Source: an uncultured Clostridia bacterium
GTDB lineage: Bacteria; Bacillota; Clostridia; TANB77; CAG-508
DNA: 48,582 nt
Direction of reading: 5' to 3'
Assembly (NCBI GenBank): GCA_934122385.1
Contig: CAKOWP010000003.1
Coordinates: 1-48,582, forward strand
The notes below the pieces were generated by a model. That model worked only from the letters and a program-made list of their open reading frames with translations, was not told the origin of the DNA and did not search any database. A program made the translations under genes and the position numbers. Shown here in pieces: positions 13,597 to 46,748 of this stretch (its first letter is position 1; each line of letters opens with the position of its first letter).

Positions 13597-13641
13597 ATGT
13601 CTCATTGAATGTCCCATTAGGGACGGTTCTGTTTGAGACAT
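13597..13641 (+). repeat. Short GGGAC hairpin repeat, copy r1
   Basis: ATGTCTCATTGAATGTCCCATTAGGGACGGTTCTGTTTGAGACAT begins on the base after the pilC stop. The stem ATGTCTCA/TGAGACAT encloses GTCCC-ATTA-GGGAC. It shares the 22-nt block GGGACGGTTCTGTTTGAGACAT with r2 (28778) and r3 (38987, inverted). Confidence 0.8.
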
Positions 13642-13654
13642 TTGACTACCCAAA

Positions 13655-13846
13655 GTTCCTAAAAGATATAAATTTTTATATTTTTTAGTTCAATACACAA
13701 CATAAGAATTTCTAAAATAAATTGATGAATCTTTTTCACTTAGTCCTCACTTCGTTCGACGTGAACGTTTTTCATAAATTTATTTAAGAAATACTAATAT
13801 TGTTTCAATCACATAAAAAATGTAAAAATTTATATCTTTTAGGGAC
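13655..13846 (+). repeat. Foldback element, copy D (core module in different outer arms)
   Basis: 26-bp outer stem GTTCCTAAAAGATATAAATTTTTATA / TGTAAAAATTTATATCTTTTAGGGAC (two T.G pairs). It encloses CAATACACAACATAAGAATTTCTAAAATAAATTGATGAA...CACTTAGTCCTCACTTCGTTCGACGTGAACG...CATAAATTTATTTAAGAAATACTAATATTGTTTCAATCAC, homologous to the cores of B and C. Confidence 0.8.
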
Positions 13847-13893
13847 TATAGTGAAATGTATAACATTCTAATAGATTATTAAGAAGGTGTAAA

Positions 13894-15770: not shown

Positions 15771-15806
15771 TAGTACTTACTTGTAAAAGTGAGTACTGTT
15801 TTTGTA
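15771..15806 (+). terminator. Intrinsic terminator after the transketolase subunit gene
   Basis: Stem AGTACTTAC/GTGAGTACT (one T.G pair) followed by GTTTTTGT. Confidence 0.5.
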
Positions 15807-15809
15807 TGC

Positions 15810-16248
15810 AAGTTGCCACCCTAAGGGTTATTTATATTTGATATTGTACCTATTTGATTGAAGTGAAAAATAGAAAATCTTAAATAAAAAACTGAGGAAT
15901 GCTCACAAAAGAAATGTATATATGTATATGATTTGAAACATTTTCTCGGTTCAATACGCAACATAAGAATTTCTAAAATAAATTGATGGATAATTCCACT
16001 TAGTCCTCGCTTCGCTCGACGTGAACGCTTTCCATAAATTTATTCAAGAAATTCTAATATTGCTCCAATCACATTCGAAAAGTTTAAAATCATATACATA
16101 TATACATTTCTGCCCTAAGTGAGAGAGGCTCAGTTTTGTATTTTAGATTTTCTTTTTAAATGTAATGAACAGGGTACAATATCAAATATATATAACCCTT
16201 AAGATGGCAACTTTTACATAAAAATTTTTTAAGTCTGTGAATTGTAAC
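15810..16248 (+). mobile_element. Long foldback element, copy B (MITE-like, left terminus missing)
   Basis: Arms AAGTTGCCACCCTAAGGGTTATTTATATTTGATATTGTACC (15810-) and GGTACAATATCAAATATATATAACCCTTAAGATGGCAACTT (-16213). The right end continues to ...CTGTGAATTGTAAC (16248), matching the copy C terminus. The interior is near-identical to the reverse complement of copy C (3 differences in a 135-nt stretch I compared). Confidence 0.85.
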
Positions 16249-27863: not shown

Positions 27864-28778
27864 ATGCAAGGGTTAATAATAGAAAATATATCAAATTTAT
27901 ACAAAATAAAAACAGAAAAAGGAACATATGAAGCAAATGCACGAGGAAAATTCAAAAAAGAAGAAATAACACCAGTAGTTGGAGACAAAGTAGAAATACA
28001 AATATTAGACGAAGAGAACAAAAAAGCTGTAATAGAAGAAATACAAGAAAGAACAACTTATATAAAAAGACCCAAAATGAGCAATATAACTCAACTTATA
28101 CTGGTGGTATCAAGTAAAAATCCTAAACCAGATTTATTACTATTAGATAAGCAATTAGTATTTGCGGAATTTTTAGGAATAAAACCAATAATAGTTTTAA
28201 ATAAAACAGACCTTGATAAAAAGAAAGAGTTTGAAAAAATAAAAGAAGTATATCAAAATATAGGCTATACAGTTATAGAAACGATAGCCAAAGACTTAGA
28301 AGAAATACCGGAAAAAAATGAAATGCATTCAGTAGGTATTCATAATTTAGAAAAAAATTTACAAGGAAATATAAATGCGTTTTCAGGAAATTCAGGAGTT
28401 GGAAAATCGACATTAATAAATGCAATTTTTAAAGATACAATAACACAAGAAGGAGAAATTAGCCAAAGAAACAAAAAAGGTAAAAACACAACAACTTCAA
28501 CAAAATTGTATGAAATAGACGAAAATACATATATTGCCGATACTCCAGGATTTTCAACATTTGATATATCTGAAATAGAATATAGAGAATTGGACAAATA
28601 TTTTAAAGAATTTAAGCCATTATTAGAAAATTGTGAGTTTGTTGGATGTACTCATATAAAAGAAGAAAATTGTGGAATAAAACAAGCTTTGCAACAGGGA
28701 AAAATAGATAGTGGTAGATATGAAAGATTTTGTAAAATTTATGAAGAATTAAAAGAAAAAGATAAGTACAAGTATTAA
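27864..28778 (+). CDS. rsgA: Ribosome small-subunit-dependent GTPase A
   Basis: N-terminal OB-fold region, circularly permuted GTPase motifs (VLNKTDL before GNSGVGKSTLIN, DTPGF), and C-terminal zinc motif CEFVGCTHIKEENC. Confidence 0.9.
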   Translation: MQGLIIENISNLYKIKTEKGTYEANARGKFKKEEITPVVGDKVEIQILDEENKKAVIEEIQERTTYIKRPKMSNITQLILVVSSKNPKPDLLLLDKQLVFAEFLGIKPIIVLNKTDLDKKKEFEKIKEVYQNIGYTVIETIAKDLEEIPEKNEMHSVGIHNLEKNLQGNINAFSGNSGVGKSTLINAIFKDTITQEGEISQRNKKGKNTTTSTKLYEIDENTYIADTPGFSTFDISEIEYRELDKYFKEFKPLLENCEFVGCTHIKEENCGIKQALQQGKIDSGRYERFCKIYEELKEKDKYKY

Positions 28779-28821
28779 TGTCTCATTGGGGACGGTTCTG
28801 TTTGAGACATCGGTTCCAAAA
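28778..28821 (+). repeat. Short GGGAC hairpin repeat, copy r2
   Basis: ATGTCTCATTGGGGACGGTTCTGTTTGAGACATCGGTTCCAAAA. The first A is the last base of the rsgA stop codon. A 33-nt block is identical to inverted copy r3. Confidence 0.8.
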
Positions 28822-28847
28822 ACGACAAATGAAACGGAGGAAATAAA

Positions 28848-30855: not shown

Positions 30856-30960
30856 TACAAAACCTCCTTTAAAAAATTTTTTATATGCTAAAATCATATA
30901 TCTTTAGTAGGTTTTTGTCAATTCTTTTAGAGTAATTTTTTTGACAATTCTTTTATAGTA

Positions 30961-31433
30961 GTTACAATTCATAGCCTTAGAAAATTTTTGAGTGTAAGTT
31001 GCCACCTTAAGGGTTATATATATTTGATATTGTATCCTATTCATTACGTTTAAAAAGAAAATCTAAAATACAAAACTGAGCCTCTCTCACTCAGACAAGA
31101 ATGTATATATGTATATGATTTTAAACTTTTCGAGTGTAATTGAAGCAATATTAGAATTTCTTAAATAAATTTATGGAAAGCGTTCACGTCGAGCGAAGCG
31201 AGGACTAAGTGGAATAAGCCATCAATTTATTTTAGAAATTCTTATGTTGCGTATTGAACCGAGAAAATGTTTCAAATCATATACATATATACATTTCTTT
31301 TGTGAGTATTCCTCAGTTATTTATTTAAGATTTTCTATTTTTCACTTCAATCAAACGGATACAATATCAAATATATATAACCCTTAAGGTGGCGACTTAC
31401 ACACAAAAACTTCCTAAGGCTGTGAATTGCAAC
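30961..31433 (-). mobile_element. Long foldback element, copy C (complete, MITE-like, with 8-bp target-site duplication)
   Basis: 473 bp. Termini are GTTACAATTCATAGCC... and ...GGCTGTGAATTGCAAC. The terminal 77 nt of the two arms are complementary at 71/77. Flanked by TTATAGTA at 30953-30960 and 31434-31441. Inverted relative to copy B. No ORF. Confidence 0.85.
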
Positions 31434-31532
31434 TTATAGTAAATTTTTTTGACAATATTTCAAAATTATGTTAATATAATAAGTGTATACAAAATTTTAG
31501 TAAATACAAAATTTTAAAGGATGTTGATTTAA

Positions 31533-35203: not shown

Positions 35204-35343
35204 TGTATGGATAAATCGTTTTTTCTAAATAATATTTTTTCATAGACATTTTGTATCATTATAAAGTTTATTCAATAAATTTTAGAAAGGATTTAGAAAA
35301 TTATAAATATTCTTAAATTATTCTGGGAAAGGAGGAAAACAAT

Positions 35344-35862
35344 ATGGATAACAAAGAACTTTTAGAAATATTGGACCAAAGATTCAATAAAATTGATGAA
35401 AAATTTGACAAGATAGATGAAAAATTTGACAAGATAGATGAAAAATTTGACAAGATAGATGAAAGACTTGACAAAATGGATGAAAGACTTGATAAAATGG
35501 ATGAAAGATTTGACAAGATGGATGAAAGACTTGATAAGATGGATGGACAATTTGGTGAAATTGATCAAAAATTCAAAGAATTCAATGACAAAATGGATAA
35601 AGGATTTAAAGAAGTAAATGACAGAATGGATAAAGGATTCAGAGAAATCAATGACAAAGTTGATAAAGGATTTGAAGATATCAATAATAGATTAGATGTA
35701 TTAACAAATTCTAATTTAGCACAAATTCTTAATGCCCAAACCCGAAACACAAAAGAAATAACTGATAAACTAGACAGATACATAGTTAAAAATGAAAGAG
35801 ACCATAAAAAATTTGAATATGAAATTGCTGATACAAAAATGAAATTAAAATTTGCAAGATAG
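35344..35862 (+). CDS. Tandem-repeat coiled-coil protein of unknown function
   Basis: Strong RBS GGAAAGGAGGA. Ten heptads of type D(E/Q)(K/R)(F/L)DK(I/M), then three 11-residue units ND(K/R)(M/V)DKGF(K/R/E)(E/D)(V/I), then a non-repetitive ~60-aa C-terminus. No TM helix or signal peptide. Confidence 0.6.
   Translation: MDNKELLEILDQRFNKIDEKFDKIDEKFDKIDEKFDKIDERLDKMDERLDKMDERFDKMDERLDKMDGQFGEIDQKFKEFNDKMDKGFKEVNDRMDKGFREINDKVDKGFEDINNRLDVLTNSNLAQILNAQTRNTKEITDKLDRYIVKNERDHKKFEYEIADTKMKLKFAR
35374..35682 (+). repeat. Coding tandem repeats: 10 x 21 bp followed by 3 x 33 bp
   Basis: Three identical copies of GATGAAAAATTTGACAAGATA (35395-35457). GATGAAAGACTTGA(C/T)AA(A/G)ATG variants run to 35541. 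33-bp units of the AATGACAAAATGGATAAAGGATTTAAAGAAGTA type run from 35584 to 35682. Confidence 0.85.
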
Positions 35863-38986: not shown

Positions 38987-39048
38987 AATGTCTCTTTTGG
39001 AACCGATGTCTCAAACAGAACCGTCCCGAAAGAGACATTCTTTTTTTT
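38987..39048 (-). repeat. Short GGGAC hairpin repeat, copy r3 (inverted), doubling as the ytfJ terminator
   Basis: The plus strand reads AATGTCTCTTT-TGGAACCGATGTCTCAAACAGAACCGTCCCG-AAAGAGACATT followed by CT8. The reverse complement shares 33 identical nt with r2. Confidence 0.8.
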
Positions 39049-40792: not shown

Positions 40793-41836
40793 TTGAAAAA
40801 AATTTTAATCTATTTGTTATCATTTATATTAATAATTTTTATAATTCCTGCACTTTTAACCAAACGAACAACATCAACAAGTTCAAAACAAGAAACAGAA
40901 AATCAATTACAGGTTAATAATCAAGAAGAACAGACAACTGAAAATCCAACAGAAACAAGTAATAAAAATACATATAATTATAACAAATATGGAACAATAT
41001 CATTACTACATAAAAAAACTGGAGAAGTTGAACAAGTGAATTTGGACGACTATTTGTGTAATGTTGTATCTGCAGAAATGCCAGCAACATTTGAACTAGA
41101 GGCATTAAAGGCTCAAGCCATAGTTGCAAGAACATATACAATTTATAAAATATTAAATAAAAAACATGATAACGCAGATATATGTGATGACTCAACATGT
41201 TGCCAAGCATGGATTTCAAAAGAAGACAGGTTTGCAAGATGGGAAGAAAACCAAAGAGAAAGTAATTGGCAAAAAATATGCAATGCAGTAAATGATACAT
41301 CAGGAAAAATTATTACATATGAAAATAAACCAATTGATGCATTTTTTCATTCAAATAGTGGTGGAATAACAGAAGTCCCTGTAAATGTATGGGGAGGCAC
41401 AGGATATCCATATTTACAAAGTGTTGAAACATCAGGAGAAGATGCATATACTCAATATTCTTCTGAAGTTGTATTATCACAAGAAGATTTGCTAAATAAG
41501 TTAAAGGAAAAATATGCGGATATTTCAATAGATTTTGCAAATAGTGAAGATATTAAAATTTTAGAATATACAGAAAGTACAAGAGTGAAAACAGTAAAGT
41601 TTGGAAATCACGAGATTTCTGGTGTTGAGGCAAGGACATTATTTGGATTGAAATCTACAAATTTTGATATAACGAGAGATGGTGATAATATTAAATTTTC
41701 TGTTAAAGGTTACGGACATGGTGTTGGAATGAGTCAAACTGGTGCTGATAGTATGGCAAAACAGGGAAGTAGTGCTGAGGATATTATTAAGCATTTTTAT
41801 ACTGGAGTTGTAATTACTGAAGTTAATAAATTGTAG
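40793..41836 (+). CDS. spoIID: Stage II sporulation protein D (lytic transglycosylase)
   Basis: N-terminal TM helix. SpoIID/LytB domain blocks YLCNVVSAEMPATFELEALKAQAIVARTY, FFHSNSGGITE and GHGVGMSQTGA. TTG 40793 lies 8 nt after GGAG; the track start is 40784. Confidence 0.85.
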   Translation: MKKILIYLLSFILIIFIIPALLTKRTTSTSSKQETENQLQVNNQEEQTTENPTETSNKNTYNYNKYGTISLLHKKTGEVEQVNLDDYLCNVVSAEMPATFELEALKAQAIVARTYTIYKILNKKHDNADICDDSTCCQAWISKEDRFARWEENQRESNWQKICNAVNDTSGKIITYENKPIDAFFHSNSGGITEVPVNVWGGTGYPYLQSVETSGEDAYTQYSSEVVLSQEDLLNKLKEKYADISIDFANSEDIKILEYTESTRVKTVKFGNHEISGVEARTLFGLKSTNFDITRDGDNIKFSVKGYGHGVGMSQTGADSMAKQGSSAEDIIKHFYTGVVITEVNKL

Positions 41837-41852
41837 GTAATATGTTATTGAT

Positions 41853-41932
41853 GGTGTAATAGTGTTCCTTGCTCCAATCACATTCAAAACTTATAACATC
41901 ATAGAACCTTTCTTAAGGAACACCATTACACT
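41853..41932 (+). repeat. Foldback-family fragment, copy G
   Basis: An 18-nt inverted repeat GGTGTAATAGTGTTCCTT / AAGGAACACCATTACACT (16/18) encloses GCTCCAATCACATTCAAAACTTATAACATCATA, homologous to GCTCCAATCACATTCGAAAAGTTTAAAATCATA of copy B. Confidence 0.65.
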
Positions 41933-42027
41933 ATAAAAATATTAATGCACAAAAGCAGAATTATAATGTATATTTTTATAAAATCCGGAAATAATTGTAA
42001 TATAAACAAATATTTAAGGAGGATTTT

Positions 42028-42861
42028 ATGAGAAGAAATATTAGAAAAAATAACAAAGATGAAATGAGTATGAGAATAATAAAGTATTCTACAATAGCTG
42101 TTGCAATACTTACAGTAATAGTATTTGTAGTATTAATTTACAGTAAAAAATTAAATGACACTGTAAAAGAAGGAACTTTAACAGGAGAACAATTATCAAG
42201 TATATTAAATAACACATCAAATCAAACAGAAAATACAGAAAGCGCAAGTTCAGAAATTGGAAAAAGTGTAAATGAGATGGCTAATGAATTAAATGCAAAT
42301 AATGCAGTAACAAATAGTTCAAATTCAAATGCAAATGCAACTACTAATAAAAGTACAAAATCAAATAATGTTTTATCAACAAATCAAATAAATAGTAACA
42401 AAATGACTGAATCAAATAGTAAAACAGAAGAAAAGGCTGAAACTAAAAATGTTGAACTAAATTTTGCAAAACCTGTTGAGGGAGATATTGTAAGAGATTT
42501 TGCTGTTGATAGTTTGGTATATTCAGATACTTTACAAGAATGGACAACACATACAGGAATTGATATAAAAGCAGATAAAACAACAGTTGTAAAATCAGCA
42601 GAAGCGGGAATTGTTAAAACTATAAAAAATGACCCCAGATATGGTTTAACAGTAATTGTAGAACATGAGAATGGATTTCAAACAGTATATTCAAATTTGT
42701 TGACATCAGAATTTGTTGTTGAAGGAGAAAAAGTAGAAAAGGGTCAATCACTTGGAACAGTTGGAAATACAGCAGCTTTTGAAATTGCAGATGAACCACA
42801 TCTTCATTTTGAAGTTTTAAAAGATTCAGTTCAAGTTGATCCAAATATATATTTAAAATAG
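42028..42861 (+). CDS. spoIIQ: Membrane-anchored M23 peptidase, SpoIIQ-like
   Basis: N-terminal TM helix, Asn/Ser-rich linker, and an LytM domain with intact HTGIDIKA and EPHLHFEV. Adjacent to spoIID as in some Clostridia. The symbol is inferred from context. Confidence 0.5.
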   Translation: MRRNIRKNNKDEMSMRIIKYSTIAVAILTVIVFVVLIYSKKLNDTVKEGTLTGEQLSSILNNTSNQTENTESASSEIGKSVNEMANELNANNAVTNSSNSNANATTNKSTKSNNVLSTNQINSNKMTESNSKTEEKAETKNVELNFAKPVEGDIVRDFAVDSLVYSDTLQEWTTHTGIDIKADKTTVVKSAEAGIVKTIKNDPRYGLTVIVEHENGFQTVYSNLLTSEFVVEGEKVEKGQSLGTVGNTAAFEIADEPHLHFEVLKDSVQVDPNIYLK

Positions 42862-43092
42862 TTACAGTTCAGTAGGAAAATACCTGAAATACCTGTGAAT
42901 GATATTTTTCATATTTTCTCAGCTTCCCGACATACGTTAACAAATTCTAATGTAAATACTCTAACAATACCCGAAGGCAGGAACCTTTAGAGCATTTACT
43001 TAAGAATTTGTAATACTATTTTGGTCACATTCGAAATATATTCAAAATATCATTCACAGGTATTTCAGGGATTTTTCCTACTGAACTGTAAC
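42861..43092 (+). mobile_element. Short foldback element, copy E (MITE-like)
   Basis: 232 bp. Termini are GTTACAGTTCAGTAGGAAAA... and ...TTTTTCCTACTGAACTGTAAC. Flanked by TTAAAATA (42853-42860) and TTAAAAAA (43093-43100). The first base is the G of the upstream TAG stop codon. Close homolog of copy F (few differences by eye). Confidence 0.85.
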
Positions 43093-43096
43093 TTAA

Positions 43097-43133
43097 AAAA
43101 GTACCTATTATAAAAATAATAGGTACTTTTCTT
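43097..43133 (+). terminator. Intrinsic terminator, displaced from the SpoIIQ-like gene by element E
   Basis: Perfect 12-bp core stem AGTACCTATTAT/ATAATAGGTACT (the full stem AAAAGTACCTATTAT/ATAATAGGTACTTTT spans 43097-43111 and 43116-43130) with a 4-nt loop AAAA, followed by TTTTCTTGATTTTTT. Confidence 0.7.
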
Positions 43134-43160
43134 GATTTTTTCTCTTTTTTGAAGTATAAT
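43132..43160 (+). promoter_or_regulatory. Candidate sigma-A promoter of the AlaRS-like gene
   Basis: TTGATT (43132-43137), a 17-nt spacer, then TATAAT (43155-43160). The ~75-nt leader is too short for a T-box. Confidence 0.45.
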
Positions 43161-43236
43161 TTAAAACATAAAAAATAACAATTTAGAAAAAATTATAGAA
43201 GAATTATCTAAATTATAAGAAAGAGGGAAAAAATAA

Positions 43237-45000
43237 ATGAAGGCAATAGAGATAAGAAATAAATATCTAAACTTTTTTAAAGAACATGGACACGCTGTAA
43301 TACCATCAGCATCATTAATACCAGAAAATGACCCATCAGTACTATTCACAACAGCAGGAATGCAACCATTAGTACCATATTTATTAGGGGAAAAACATCC
43401 ATCAGGAACAAGACTTACAGACTACCAAAAATGTCTAAGAACAAATGACATAGAAGAGGTAGGAGACAACAGACACTTAACATATTTCGAAATGTTAGGA
43501 AACTGGTCATTAGGAGACTATTTCAAAGAAGAATCAATTCAAATGAGTTTTGATTTCTTAACAAAAGAATTACAAATTCCAGTAGAAAAATTATCTGTAA
43601 CAGTATTTGCAGGGGATGACGATTGCCCAAGGGACGAATTAGCAGCAGAATGCTGGAAAAAAGCAGGAATTTTAGATGGACATATTTATTATTATGGAAA
43701 AGACGACAACTGGTGGATAGCAGGAGAAGAAGGCCCATGTGGACCAGATACAGAAATGTTCTATGACACAGGAAAACCAGCATGTGGACCAGACTGTCAA
43801 CCTTCATGTGACTGTGGTAAATATGTTGAAATATGGAACAATGTATTTATGGAATATTTCAAAAGCAAAGATGGAAAATATTCAAAATTAGCTCAAAGAA
43901 ATGTTGATACAGGACTTGGACTAGAAAGAATGACAATGTTATTACAAGGAAAAGAAACACCATTTGATACAGAATTATTCAAACCAGTAATGGACAAACT
44001 ATCAGAATTACAAAAAGTTGATAACATAGAAAGTAGAAGAATCATAGCAGAACACTTACGTTCAAGTATGATGGTAATTAGTGATGGTGGAAGACCAAGC
44101 AATGTTGATAGAGGATATATTTTAAGAAGATTAATTCGTAGAATGGTAAGGCATATGAATAAACTACAAATAAATCTTGATGAAATATCAACATTAATAG
44201 ATATCAATGTTGAAAACTTAAAAGAAATGTATCCAGACTTAGTAAAAAATCAAGAATTGATAAAAAATGTAATAATTGAAGAAAAAAATAAATTTGTAAA
44301 AACACTTGCACATGGTGAAAAAGAATTTGAAAAAGAAATGAATAAAGCTAAAGAACAAGGCAAAACTAAAATAGATGGAAAAGTAGTATTTAAATTATAT
44401 GATACATATGGATTCCCACCAGAAGTTACAAGTGAATTAGCAAAAGAAAACAATATGACTGTTGATATGAAAGAATTTGATGAACTATTTAAAGCACATC
44501 AAGAAAAATCAAGAATGGGTTCAGAACAAAAATTTAAAGGTGGACTAGCAGAACAAAATGACACAACAATCGCATATCATACTGCAACACATTTATTAAA
44601 TGCAGCACTTAAAGTAGTTTTAGGACCAGAAACACATCAAAGAGGTTCAAACATTACAGTAGACAGAATGAGATTTGACTTCAACTGTGACCACAAAATG
44701 ACAGACGAAGAAAAGAAACAAACAGAAGATTTAGTAAATAAATGGATTCAAGATGCAATACCAGTAACAGTAGAAGAAATGAAAAAAGAGGAAGCGGTTA
44801 AATCAGGAGCAGAATGTATGTTTATTGAAAAATATCCTGAAGTTGTAACTGTTTATACAATAGGAGATGTTTCAAAAGAACTATGTGGTGGACCTCATGT
44901 AAAAAATACAAGTGAACTTGGAAAATTTAAAATCAAAAAAGAAGAAGCAAGTTCAGCCGGAGTTAGAAGAATAAAAGCAATTTTGGAAAAAGGGATTTAG
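43237..45000 (+). CDS. alaS: Alanine--tRNA ligase-like protein, short form (587 aa; no beta-barrel subdomain, no C-Ala domain)
   Basis: Class IIc catalytic blocks FTTAGMQP, FEMLGNWSLGDYFK, GPCGPDTEMFYD, VEIWNNVFMEY and DTGLGLERM. tRNA-recognition block PSNVDRGYILRRLIRR. Editing-core HTATH...CGGPH. Ends right after GVRRIKAIL. Confidence 0.75.
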   Translation: MKAIEIRNKYLNFFKEHGHAVIPSASLIPENDPSVLFTTAGMQPLVPYLLGEKHPSGTRLTDYQKCLRTNDIEEVGDNRHLTYFEMLGNWSLGDYFKEESIQMSFDFLTKELQIPVEKLSVTVFAGDDDCPRDELAAECWKKAGILDGHIYYYGKDDNWWIAGEEGPCGPDTEMFYDTGKPACGPDCQPSCDCGKYVEIWNNVFMEYFKSKDGKYSKLAQRNVDTGLGLERMTMLLQGKETPFDTELFKPVMDKLSELQKVDNIESRRIIAEHLRSSMMVISDGGRPSNVDRGYILRRLIRRMVRHMNKLQINLDEISTLIDINVENLKEMYPDLVKNQELIKNVIIEEKNKFVKTLAHGEKEFEKEMNKAKEQGKTKIDGKVVFKLYDTYGFPPEVTSELAKENNMTVDMKEFDELFKAHQEKSRMGSEQKFKGGLAEQNDTTIAYHTATHLLNAALKVVLGPETHQRGSNITVDRMRFDFNCDHKMTDEEKKQTEDLVNKWIQDAIPVTVEEMKKEEAVKSGAECMFIEKYPEVVTVYTIGDVSKELCGGPHVKNTSELGKFKIKKEEASSAGVRRIKAILEKGI

Positions 45001-45130
45001 GGACGTTCCTGAAAATCCCTTTTTCAAGGGAATGGGGGACACTCCTTTAGATTGTAAAATGTTTTGAATTTTAAAAGGAATGTCCCTTTATCCCGATTTG
45101 AAGGGAATTTAAGGAACGTCCCTAAATCCC
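44992..45130. repeat. GGGAC-type 139-bp palindrome, element H
   Basis: Terminal inverted repeat GGGATTTAGGGACGTTCCT(G) / (A)AGGAACGTCCCTAAATCCC at 19/20. The inner pair GGGGACACTCCTTT / AAAGGAATGTCCCT has one mismatch. Four GGGAC/GTCCC motifs. The left arm encodes the last codons and stop of the AlaRS-like ORF. Confidence 0.8.
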
Positions 45131-46390: not shown

Positions 46391-46418
46391 GCTTACAAGA
46401 AATTGTAGGCTTTTTTCT
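46391..46418 (+). terminator. Intrinsic terminator of the sortase gene
   Basis: Stem GCTTACAA/TTGTAGGC (one T.G pair) followed by TTTTTTCT. That T-tract is the target duplicated by element F. Confidence 0.6.
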
Positions 46419-46652
46419 GTTACAGTTCAGTAAGGAAAATTCCTGAAATACCTGCGAATGATATTTTTCATATTTTCTCAGGTTCCCTACATGATGTTAA
46501 CAAATTCTAATGTAAATACTCTAACAATACCCGAAGGCAGGACCCTTTAGAGCATTTACTTAAGAATTTGTAACATTATTTTGGTCACATTCGAAATATA
46601 TTCAAAATATCATTCGCAGGTATTTCAGGGATTTTCCTTACTGAACTGTAAC
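46419..46652 (+). mobile_element. Short foldback element, copy F (MITE-like, perfect 8-bp target-site duplication)
   Basis: 234 bp. Termini are GTTACAGTTCAGTAAGGAAAA... and ...TTTTCCTTACTGAACTGTAAC. Flanked by TTTTTTCT at 46411-46418 and 46653-46660. Confidence 0.9.
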
Positions 46653-46748
46653 TTTTTTCTTTATAAAATTTGCAGAATTTAAAAAAAATACTTTAAAAAA
46701 ACAAGAAAATGTTATACAATATACGAAAAGTAAAAAAAGGAGAAAGGT

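Follow-up and report, generated by a model that had tools for sequence, protein, structure and literature searches.

Bacterial MITEs are defined by terminal inverted repeats, a core without a transposase gene, direct-repeat duplications of the target, a size of less than about 400 bp, and the potential to form a long hairpin (Delihas, 2011; PMC3184786). The element that we describe here, which we will term E, has all of these features. It lies at the stop codon of a SpoIIQ-like gene in a stretch of 48,582 nucleotides, part of a gut metagenome scaffold, from an uncultured Clostridia bacterium (we will refer to this whole stretch as the window). Many described MITEs have a known parental insertion sequence; in contrast, none was found for E in the window or in 67 loci.

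The Correia elements of Neisseria (CREE/NEMIS) are a natural comparison. One account describes them as non-coding inverted repeats of 100–160 bp that are often cotranscribed with neighboring genes, and whose RNA hairpin is bound by RNase III and either cleaved or protected, with altered expression of the adjacent gene (PMC2649163). E is likewise small, non-coding, and built from inverted repeats, but it has an 8-bp duplication, it is 232 bp long, it is a palindrome over almost its full length, and it comes from a Clostridium of ~27% G+C. Correia elements have a TA duplication, 26-bp repeats, and a proteobacterial host; their repeat is not known to be related to that of E.

Within the Firmicutes, the pneumococcal repeats RUP, BOX, and SPRITE and the Bacillus cereus repeat bcr1 are multicopy intergenic hairpin repeats that are frequently found within mRNAs (PMC3049150). 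E resembles them in being small, multicopy, hairpin-forming, and from the same phylum, but its sequence is unrelated to theirs, and BOX is modular and lacks terminal inverted repeats. RUP and bcr1 are regarded as MITEs, and the target duplications in this group are of the TA type or TTTAT. E is also distinct from REPIN/RAYT elements and from elements derived from IS200/IS605, which produce no target duplication and have single-strand hairpin ends, whereas E has 8-bp duplications and true terminal inverted repeats.

Three other systems bear comparison with the two orientations in which the core of E occurs among related strains. In chloroplast genomes, short non-coding segments that lie between the inverted repeats of hairpin loops flip repeatedly and homoplasiously. 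In bacteria, template switching at quasipalindromes corrects imperfect palindromes towards symmetry. These two processes match what we describe below for E, namely a core that is flipped and arms that differ in paired positions, although they act on ordinary hairpins and E is a transposable element. The cwpV and flgB switches of Clostridioides difficile consist of ~150–200 bp between inverted repeats and also exist in two orientations, between which they are flipped by RecV. These switches are single-copy, lack target duplications, contain an orientation-dependent promoter or terminator, and need a tyrosine recombinase; E, in contrast, is multicopy with 8-bp target duplications.

E is a not previously known member of an ordinary kind of bacterial insertion, and the less usual part is the flipped core in some related strains. 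The best explanation overall, which we consider highly probable, is that E is a MITE that landed on the stop codon, ahead of the terminator, with an 8-bp duplication, and that its core was later inverted in place.

Anatomy of element E and its relatives

E runs from G42861 to C43092 on the forward strand. The initial annotation, which had placed a 232-bp element there that begins on the G of the TAG stop codon (42859–42861), is correct in every base and coordinate. The left arm (42861–42908, forward strand, 48 nt, tip GTTACAGTTCA) and the right arm (43044–43092, reverse strand, 49 nt) are terminal inverted repeats that enclose an asymmetric core of ~135 bp (42909–43043, forward strand), which is an imperfect palindrome in itself. 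The arms are 100% complementary over the outer 21 nt and 90% over the next 41 nt, with 26–28 nt of perfect arm-to-arm identity, and alignment of the full segment with its reverse complement gives 77% identity. The RNA of the region is predicted to fold very stably (minimum free energy of −117 kcal/mol, versus −41 ± 4 for shuffled sequences, z = −18). There are no open reading frames of 40 or more amino acids within 42861–43092. Given its small size, the lack of a sizeable open reading frame, the terminal inverted repeats, the constant 8-bp duplication, and the dispersed copies, E is by structure a bacterial MITE, or non-autonomous inverted-repeat transposon.

To the left, E is flanked by the 8-bp sequence TTAAAATA (42853–42860), which includes the TA of the stop codon, and to the right by TTAAAAAA (43093–43100), which differs by one T>A change. 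The 7/8 match had been read as a target duplication, with the caveat that it might be a coincidence of low-complexity flanks. This caveat falls because the 8-bp rule holds across the family: 8 of the 11 full copies have perfect 8-bp flanking duplications and the other 3 match at 7/8. From base composition, we estimate the chance of a 7/8 match between unrelated A/T-rich 8-mers at ~0.002–0.02. Judging from these flanks, E is bordered by a genuine target duplication, one copy of which later underwent a single substitution.

We searched for an exact 23-nt arm pattern in 185,579 species-representative genomes. The pattern was found in only three MAGs (CAMBEE01, CAKOUU01, and MNRS01; two from uncultured Clostridium/Clostridia and Clostridium sp. 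28_17), in at least 11 stretches, all of them ~233-bp copies (at least five in each of two MAGs and one in the third). The copies in the MAGs are 93–97% identical. Of ten copies beyond E and F, nine have the 8-bp flanking duplication and one is half-deleted. The truncated copy in contig L022 is a simple half-deletion, and no insertion sequence lies beside it. A blastn comparison with plasmids and phages gave no match to the family, and neither did searches of viral contigs with the arm and core patterns; no Rfam family matches E at the gathering score. Plant miRNA hairpins, which appeared under an E-value threshold only, were far below the family threshold, and we rejected them as generic hairpin similarity. 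We also looked for a cognate autonomous element, and no pair of tips encloses an open reading frame in the window or in the 67 loci. E adds a well-delimited, lineage-restricted MITE family, with an 8-bp duplication and ~48-nt arms, to a little-studied lineage of uncultured gut Clostridia.

The family is multicopy within the window alone (48.6 kb), which contains E and a second copy, F (46419–46652, 234 bp, forward strand). F shares 94% identity with E, and a perfect 8-bp duplication, TTTTTTCT, borders it on both sides (46411–46660 with flanks). Its insertion point is within the T-tract that belongs to the terminator of a sortase gene. In related strains, the F site is always occupied, by one of two element types: some strains have a different, longer foldback element there, within the same duplication. 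Because E and F each have their own matching 8-bp duplication, we rejected the idea that they are the ends of a composite transposon around the alaS-HIT-sortase block. The window also contains a longer foldback element (30961–31433, 473 bp, forward strand; 30953–31441 with flanks) within a perfect 8-bp duplication, TTATAGTA. It shares with E only the tips of ~11 nt (GTTACAATTCA...TGAATTGCAAC), which suggest that it was probably moved by the same transposase.

The host gene, its stop codon, and its terminator

The gene that E abuts (42028–42861, forward strand) encodes a membrane-anchored M23/LytM peptidase. The translation has a hydrophobic segment at residues 19–38, presumably the N-terminal anchor, and an M23 domain at residues 174–272 (PF01551, 4.9e-25). 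Directly upstream lies spoIID (an equivalog match to TIGR02870, 1.7e-101), and the spoIIAA-spoIIAB-sigF operon (spoIIAB/sigF-type genes) is also upstream. The best matches of the protein among PDB sequences include SpoIIQ of Bacillus (3UZ0 and 3TUF). So, the gene has the membrane anchor, the LytM/M23 domain, and the adjacency to spoIID in a sporulation cluster that are features of spoIIQ. However, the protein scores only 62 bits against the curated SpoIIQ model NF053738, which was built on Bacillus-type SpoIIQ and has a cut-off of 250 bits. Because the score is under the cut-off, a fair label on the basis of the matches is "SpoIIQ-like" only.

The insertion left the protein unchanged. The initial annotation had left two options for the gene before the insertion, namely that it already ended at this position or that it ran four codons longer, and had proposed a comparison with orthologous 3' ends in relatives that lack the element. 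In these relatives, the gene stops at the same codon, with TAA. Also, the C-terminus reads ...PN(I/M)YLK in 120 of the 120 closest homologs (78–100% identity), those from element-less relatives included. Therefore, the gene ended here before the insertion, and the first option is the one that holds. The sequence ...TTAAAATA(A/G) is present in every ortholog, whether the element is there or not, and from this the left flank is the ancestral target, and the right copy is the one that gained the T>A change. We reconstruct the pre-insertion sequence as ...TTA AAA TAG TACC..., with the stop codon abutting a 12-bp terminator stem. The first base of E, a G, completes the TAG stop codon. Both tips of the element start with G (or with A in L017 and L026), so the stop codon is rebuilt as TAG or TAA in either orientation of the element. 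This illustrates how a MITE can land on a stop codon and leave the protein unchanged: its own first base remakes the stop.

The intrinsic terminator of the SpoIIQ-like gene (43097–43140, forward strand) has a perfect 15-bp stem (43097–43111 paired with 43116–43130), a 4-nt loop, and the tail CTTGATTTTT. It begins 5 nt past E, as had been noted, and shares 4 nt with the end of the right duplication. The 12-bp core stem in the initial description corresponds to the stem that is left in the reconstructed empty site; the T>A change in the right duplication extends it from 12 to 15 bp. This stem is the only terminator-like site in 41800–43300 (shuffled sequences give 0.2), with none between 42861 and 43097. 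A reasonable inference from this arrangement is that the whole foldback would be transcribed within the 3' UTR, as far as the stem at 43097–43130. Downstream of E is alaS, a short gene identified by profile matches (43237–45000, forward strand), which is preceded by a predicted promoter-like site (TTGATT-17-TATAAT, 43132–43160, forward strand) that is only a 10/12 match to the consensus. Promoter-like matches are not in excess in the region (7, versus 9.7 expected from shuffled sequences), and the sole match within E is weak (9/12).

We retrieved ~55 contigs with the SpoIIQ-like gene or close homologs of it. Of these, ~40 have alaS downstream (with 92–100% identity of the SpoIIQ-like protein), and all of them carry E at the same position and with the same flanks, TTAAAATA and TTAAAAAA. 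The contigs without E (L008–L016, L034, L058, and L065–L067) have a TAA stop codon, a different terminator, and other downstream DNA, which usually leads to rny; orthologs without E exist at 80–93% identity. An exact empty site, with the same flanks on both sides, was not found among the ~55 contigs; look-ups by exact protein gave either E with alaS downstream or a different downstream context. If spoIIQ were joined to the alaS-side terminator, the empty site would read ...TATATTTAAAATAGTAYCTATTAT..., and in sequencing reads the junction would appear as ...TTAAAATAGTAYCTATTAT... A scan of metagenomes for the reconstructed junction TATATTTAAAAWARTAYCTATTAT gave only chance matches, in four unrelated contigs. 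Two contigs, L008 and L058, were considered as exact empty sites and rejected: they are mosaics, with divergence that begins inside the gene (30–300 nt ahead of the stop codon) and with DNA of the rny-linked arrangement downstream. From this distribution, the insertion of E is old and is fixed in the lineage that has alaS downstream.

Inversion of the core and paired changes on the arms

The core of E is reversed in 7 of ~35 related contigs (L005, L006, L017, L018, L051, L055, and L059). The flipped contigs keep the position of E and both flanks, the mutated right duplication TTAAAAAA included. Indeed, the T>A change in the right copy is common to all of the related contigs, whichever way the core is oriented. 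As independent insertions would each give a perfect duplication, the shared mutated duplication indicates a single insertion that was followed by inversion in situ. Both orientations also occur beside genes that encode identical SpoIIQ-like proteins, and this is true for three different proteins (P0004, in L007 versus the flipped L005 and L006; P0006, in L045–L049 and L053 versus the flipped L051; and P0015, in L056, L057, and L062 versus the flipped L055 and L059). Another orthologous site has opposite orientations in two MAG species (L024 versus L022).

The markers in the outer arms partly stay with the flank. For L005, a flip of the core only leaves 2–3 differences, versus 6–7 for a flip of the whole element, with about one indel marker per arm to tell the two apart. 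Some of the flipped alleles, such as L051, are uninformative as to which of the two occurred. Together, the conserved flanks and these markers indicate that the core was inverted in situ, putatively through exchange of one arm with the other. The orientations may also be old alleles that recombination has carried from strain to strain. We considered whether the flips might be assembly artefacts. This seems unlikely because the 26–28 nt of perfect arm identity is shorter than the k-mers of the assemblers and because the contigs come from several studies and assemblers.

Another feature of the family is that differences between copies tend to come in pairs, one on each arm. E has AGTAGG/CCTACT where F has AGTAAGG/CCTTACT, and E has CCTGTGAAT/ATTCACAGG (42892–42900 and 43052–43060) where F has CCTGCGAAT/ATTCGCAGG. 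These paired differences between E and F had been reported in the initial annotation, and our comparison of the sequences shows that they are real. Similarly, a diverged copy (L013b) has ~10 arm positions that are changed relative to the consensus, on both sides, and CCCCG/CGGGG is present on the two arms of the F-site copies in L045 and L055. At the E site, the arms are alike in the window and unlike in some strains, such as L002 (AGTAAGG versus AGTAGGA). Arm-to-arm exchange or homogenization would explain these patterns better than selection on an RNA hairpin does, and this exchange or template switching would be the process that also inverts the core. A single transposase that recognizes the two ends jointly would produce paired changes as well.

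Proposed course of events and competing explanations

We propose that E was mobilized by a DDE-type transposase that was supplied in trans and that made staggered cuts, 8 bp apart, at the target. E would have integrated into TTAAAATA, which includes the TA of the stop codon, between the open reading frame and the terminator. The end base of the element (G or A) would have remade the stop codon as TAG or TAA, with the same protein. Later, the right copy of the duplication would have acquired its T>A change and the terminator its longer stem. Also later, the two arms would have exchanged with each other and so inverted the core in place, on at least one occasion and probably on several. Such exchange, or template switching from arm to arm, would meanwhile keep the arms alike, hence the paired differences between E and F. 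Transcripts would extend across the complete foldback, as part of the 3' UTR, and end at the terminator. By analogy with Correia elements, the resulting RNA hairpin of ~100 bp would be a substrate for double-strand RNases and could alter mRNA stability. If this is true, then E would affect a gene that is needed for engulfment during sporulation.

The two orientations of the core raise the question of whether E is instead a phase-variable inverton, in which a site-specific recombinase flips the core and so changes the expression of spoIIQ or alaS. Indeed, both orientations are found at one site among strains with identical SpoIIQ-like proteins, and again at a second orthologous site, and a ~135-bp core between inverted repeats resembles known clostridial switches. 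We nevertheless consider this quite improbable, because E is multicopy with 8-bp target duplications, which are absent from invertons. Promoter-like matches are no more frequent than in shuffled sequences, the only one inside E is a 9/12 match, and a strong terminator stands between E and alaS. Also, there is no recombinase gene among the neighbors that we scanned, and the perfect identity between the arms is long enough for recombination or template switching to take place with no enzyme specific to the task. An even less probable explanation is that the flanking 8-mers are not a duplication at all and that E marks the junction of a recombination between two copies at different loci, by which the alaS block came to adjoin spoIIQ. 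Synteny does break at the 3' end of spoIIQ, beyond which relatives that lack E continue into rny or other genes; there is no alaS-linked empty site in the data; and the duplication at E is 7/8 rather than 8/8. However, this explanation needs a 7/8 match of unrelated A/T-rich 8-mers, which by our estimate above is a rare event, and three copies in the family are also at 7/8. Furthermore, the mosaic contigs L008 and L058 start to diverge within the gene and not at the boundary of the element.

It is also conceivable that the foldback is native to the gene, as a selected, structured 3' UTR or regulatory RNA, and that the paired arm changes are compensatory mutations. The extremely stable fold, and the fact that the positions that changed on both sides keep their pairing, would fit. 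This seems the most doubtful of these explanations, as near-identical copies are present at unrelated loci, including F, which lies after a terminator, where little transcription is expected; no Rfam family is matched at the gathering score; and orthologs at 80–93% identity lack E. Moreover, both orientations of the core are tolerated, which speaks against the core having a role that depends strongly on its sequence. Insertion of a MITE with later inversion of its core accounts better for these observations. A broader view would be that E, F, and the longer foldbacks with GTTACA(G/A)TT tips form an undescribed group that homes to the A/T tract at the foot of terminator hairpins, has flipping cores, and has members that succeed one another at a single 8-bp target, the F site being an example. 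Its members would be interchangeable, orientation-variable 3'-end modules, possibly with a hairpin-dependent rather than a cut-and-paste mechanism. We regard this as a speculative possibility, somewhat less remote than an inverton but still unlikely.

The interest of the locus lies chiefly in the in-place inversion of E and in the F site, where one insertion site is re-used by different elements. The inversion also has a practical side, in that a foldback MITE with a flipping core can pass for a phase-variable inverton in metagenome surveys. Finally, foldbacks of the E type break assemblies: at least five related contigs end inside E.

Alternative occupants of the F site

In the strain comparison, the site of F (46411-46660), which is the second copy of the E family in the window, was found to have three alternative occupants, all at exactly the same position and all with the TTTTTTCT duplication. 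The short E/F-type element occupies this site in the window and in four contigs from relatives (L045, L046, L055, and L057). In other strains, the site holds a foldback of 363-471 bp from the same family as the longer foldback at 30961-31433 of the window, and in a third strain group this longer element is left-truncated, with a length of about 312 bp. (The F-site loci are L002:9341-9703, L005:9402-9872, and L017:9346-9816, along with those in L056 and L035/L036/L044, which are given by contig only.) The short and longer types have only their tips of about 10 nt in common, and both are present among strains whose SpoIIQ-like proteins are identical. One site could have been targeted repeatedly, or one element could have been replaced by another.

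For 4 of the 11 copies (E; F; L019:7370-7604; and L027:174-407), a terminator-like hairpin is present at the insertion site, on either strand: the 8-bp target is the A/T tract at the hairpin's foot, or the target overlaps the 3' arm of the hairpin. The elements may prefer such targets, or the pattern may simply mirror the content of short A/T-rich intergenic regions.

E-type copies and possible relics in relatives

An E-type copy lies between sigF and spoIID in a lineage of 80% identity (L013:3630-3830). Its core is 95% identical to positions 42-190 of E. Its arms depart from E symmetrically, with ATTATTATAATAA on both sides instead of GTGAATG, and it is without the GTTACAG tips. This copy is a further example of arm changes that are mirrored on both sides. 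At L008:1380-1405, a right tip stands directly against a left tip with zero spacing (GGTGAACTGTAAC joined to GTTATAGTTCGC), and the same sequence is found in L066/L067. The junction could derive from two truncated elements, or it could be what is left of tandem copies.

The spoIID stop codon and the gene downstream of E

A 130-bp insertion with a hairpin, distinct from E, lies on the stop codon of spoIID (41833-41962). The gene ends in ...AAATTG TAG GTAATATG... in the window and L005, and in ...AAATTA TAA TGTATA... in L002 and L045. The end of the protein is kept (TTA TAA to TTG TAG), as it is at E. At almost the same spot, the L035 group carries a third foldback that is about 469 bp long.

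The gene 3' of E (43237-45000) encodes a short alanine--tRNA ligase (587 aa, PRK01584 type). In L017 (6217-7974), alaS is split, giving one ORF of 245 aa and another of 334 aa. The adjacency of spoIIQ and alaS is lineage-specific, with rny downstream in other lineages. Between alaS and the HIT gene is an inverted repeat with 57-nt arms (44992-45130); this spacer is shorter by 55 bp in L002.

Nested foldbacks and other repeats in the window

Four foldback elements in the window are nested (2534-2891, 13654-13847, 15798-16248, and 30961-31433), with inner layers that are repeated under differing outer arms. The innermost ...CAACATAAGAATTTCTAAAATAAATTGATG... module is found in all four, and the left tip has been lost from the copy at 15798-16248. 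A repeat that contains GGGACGGTTCTGTTTGAGACAT is present at three intergenic sites (13607-13641, 28777-28827, and 38989-39040). Tandem coding repeats of 21 nt and 33 nt are located at 35323-35690, within the ORF at 35344-35862.
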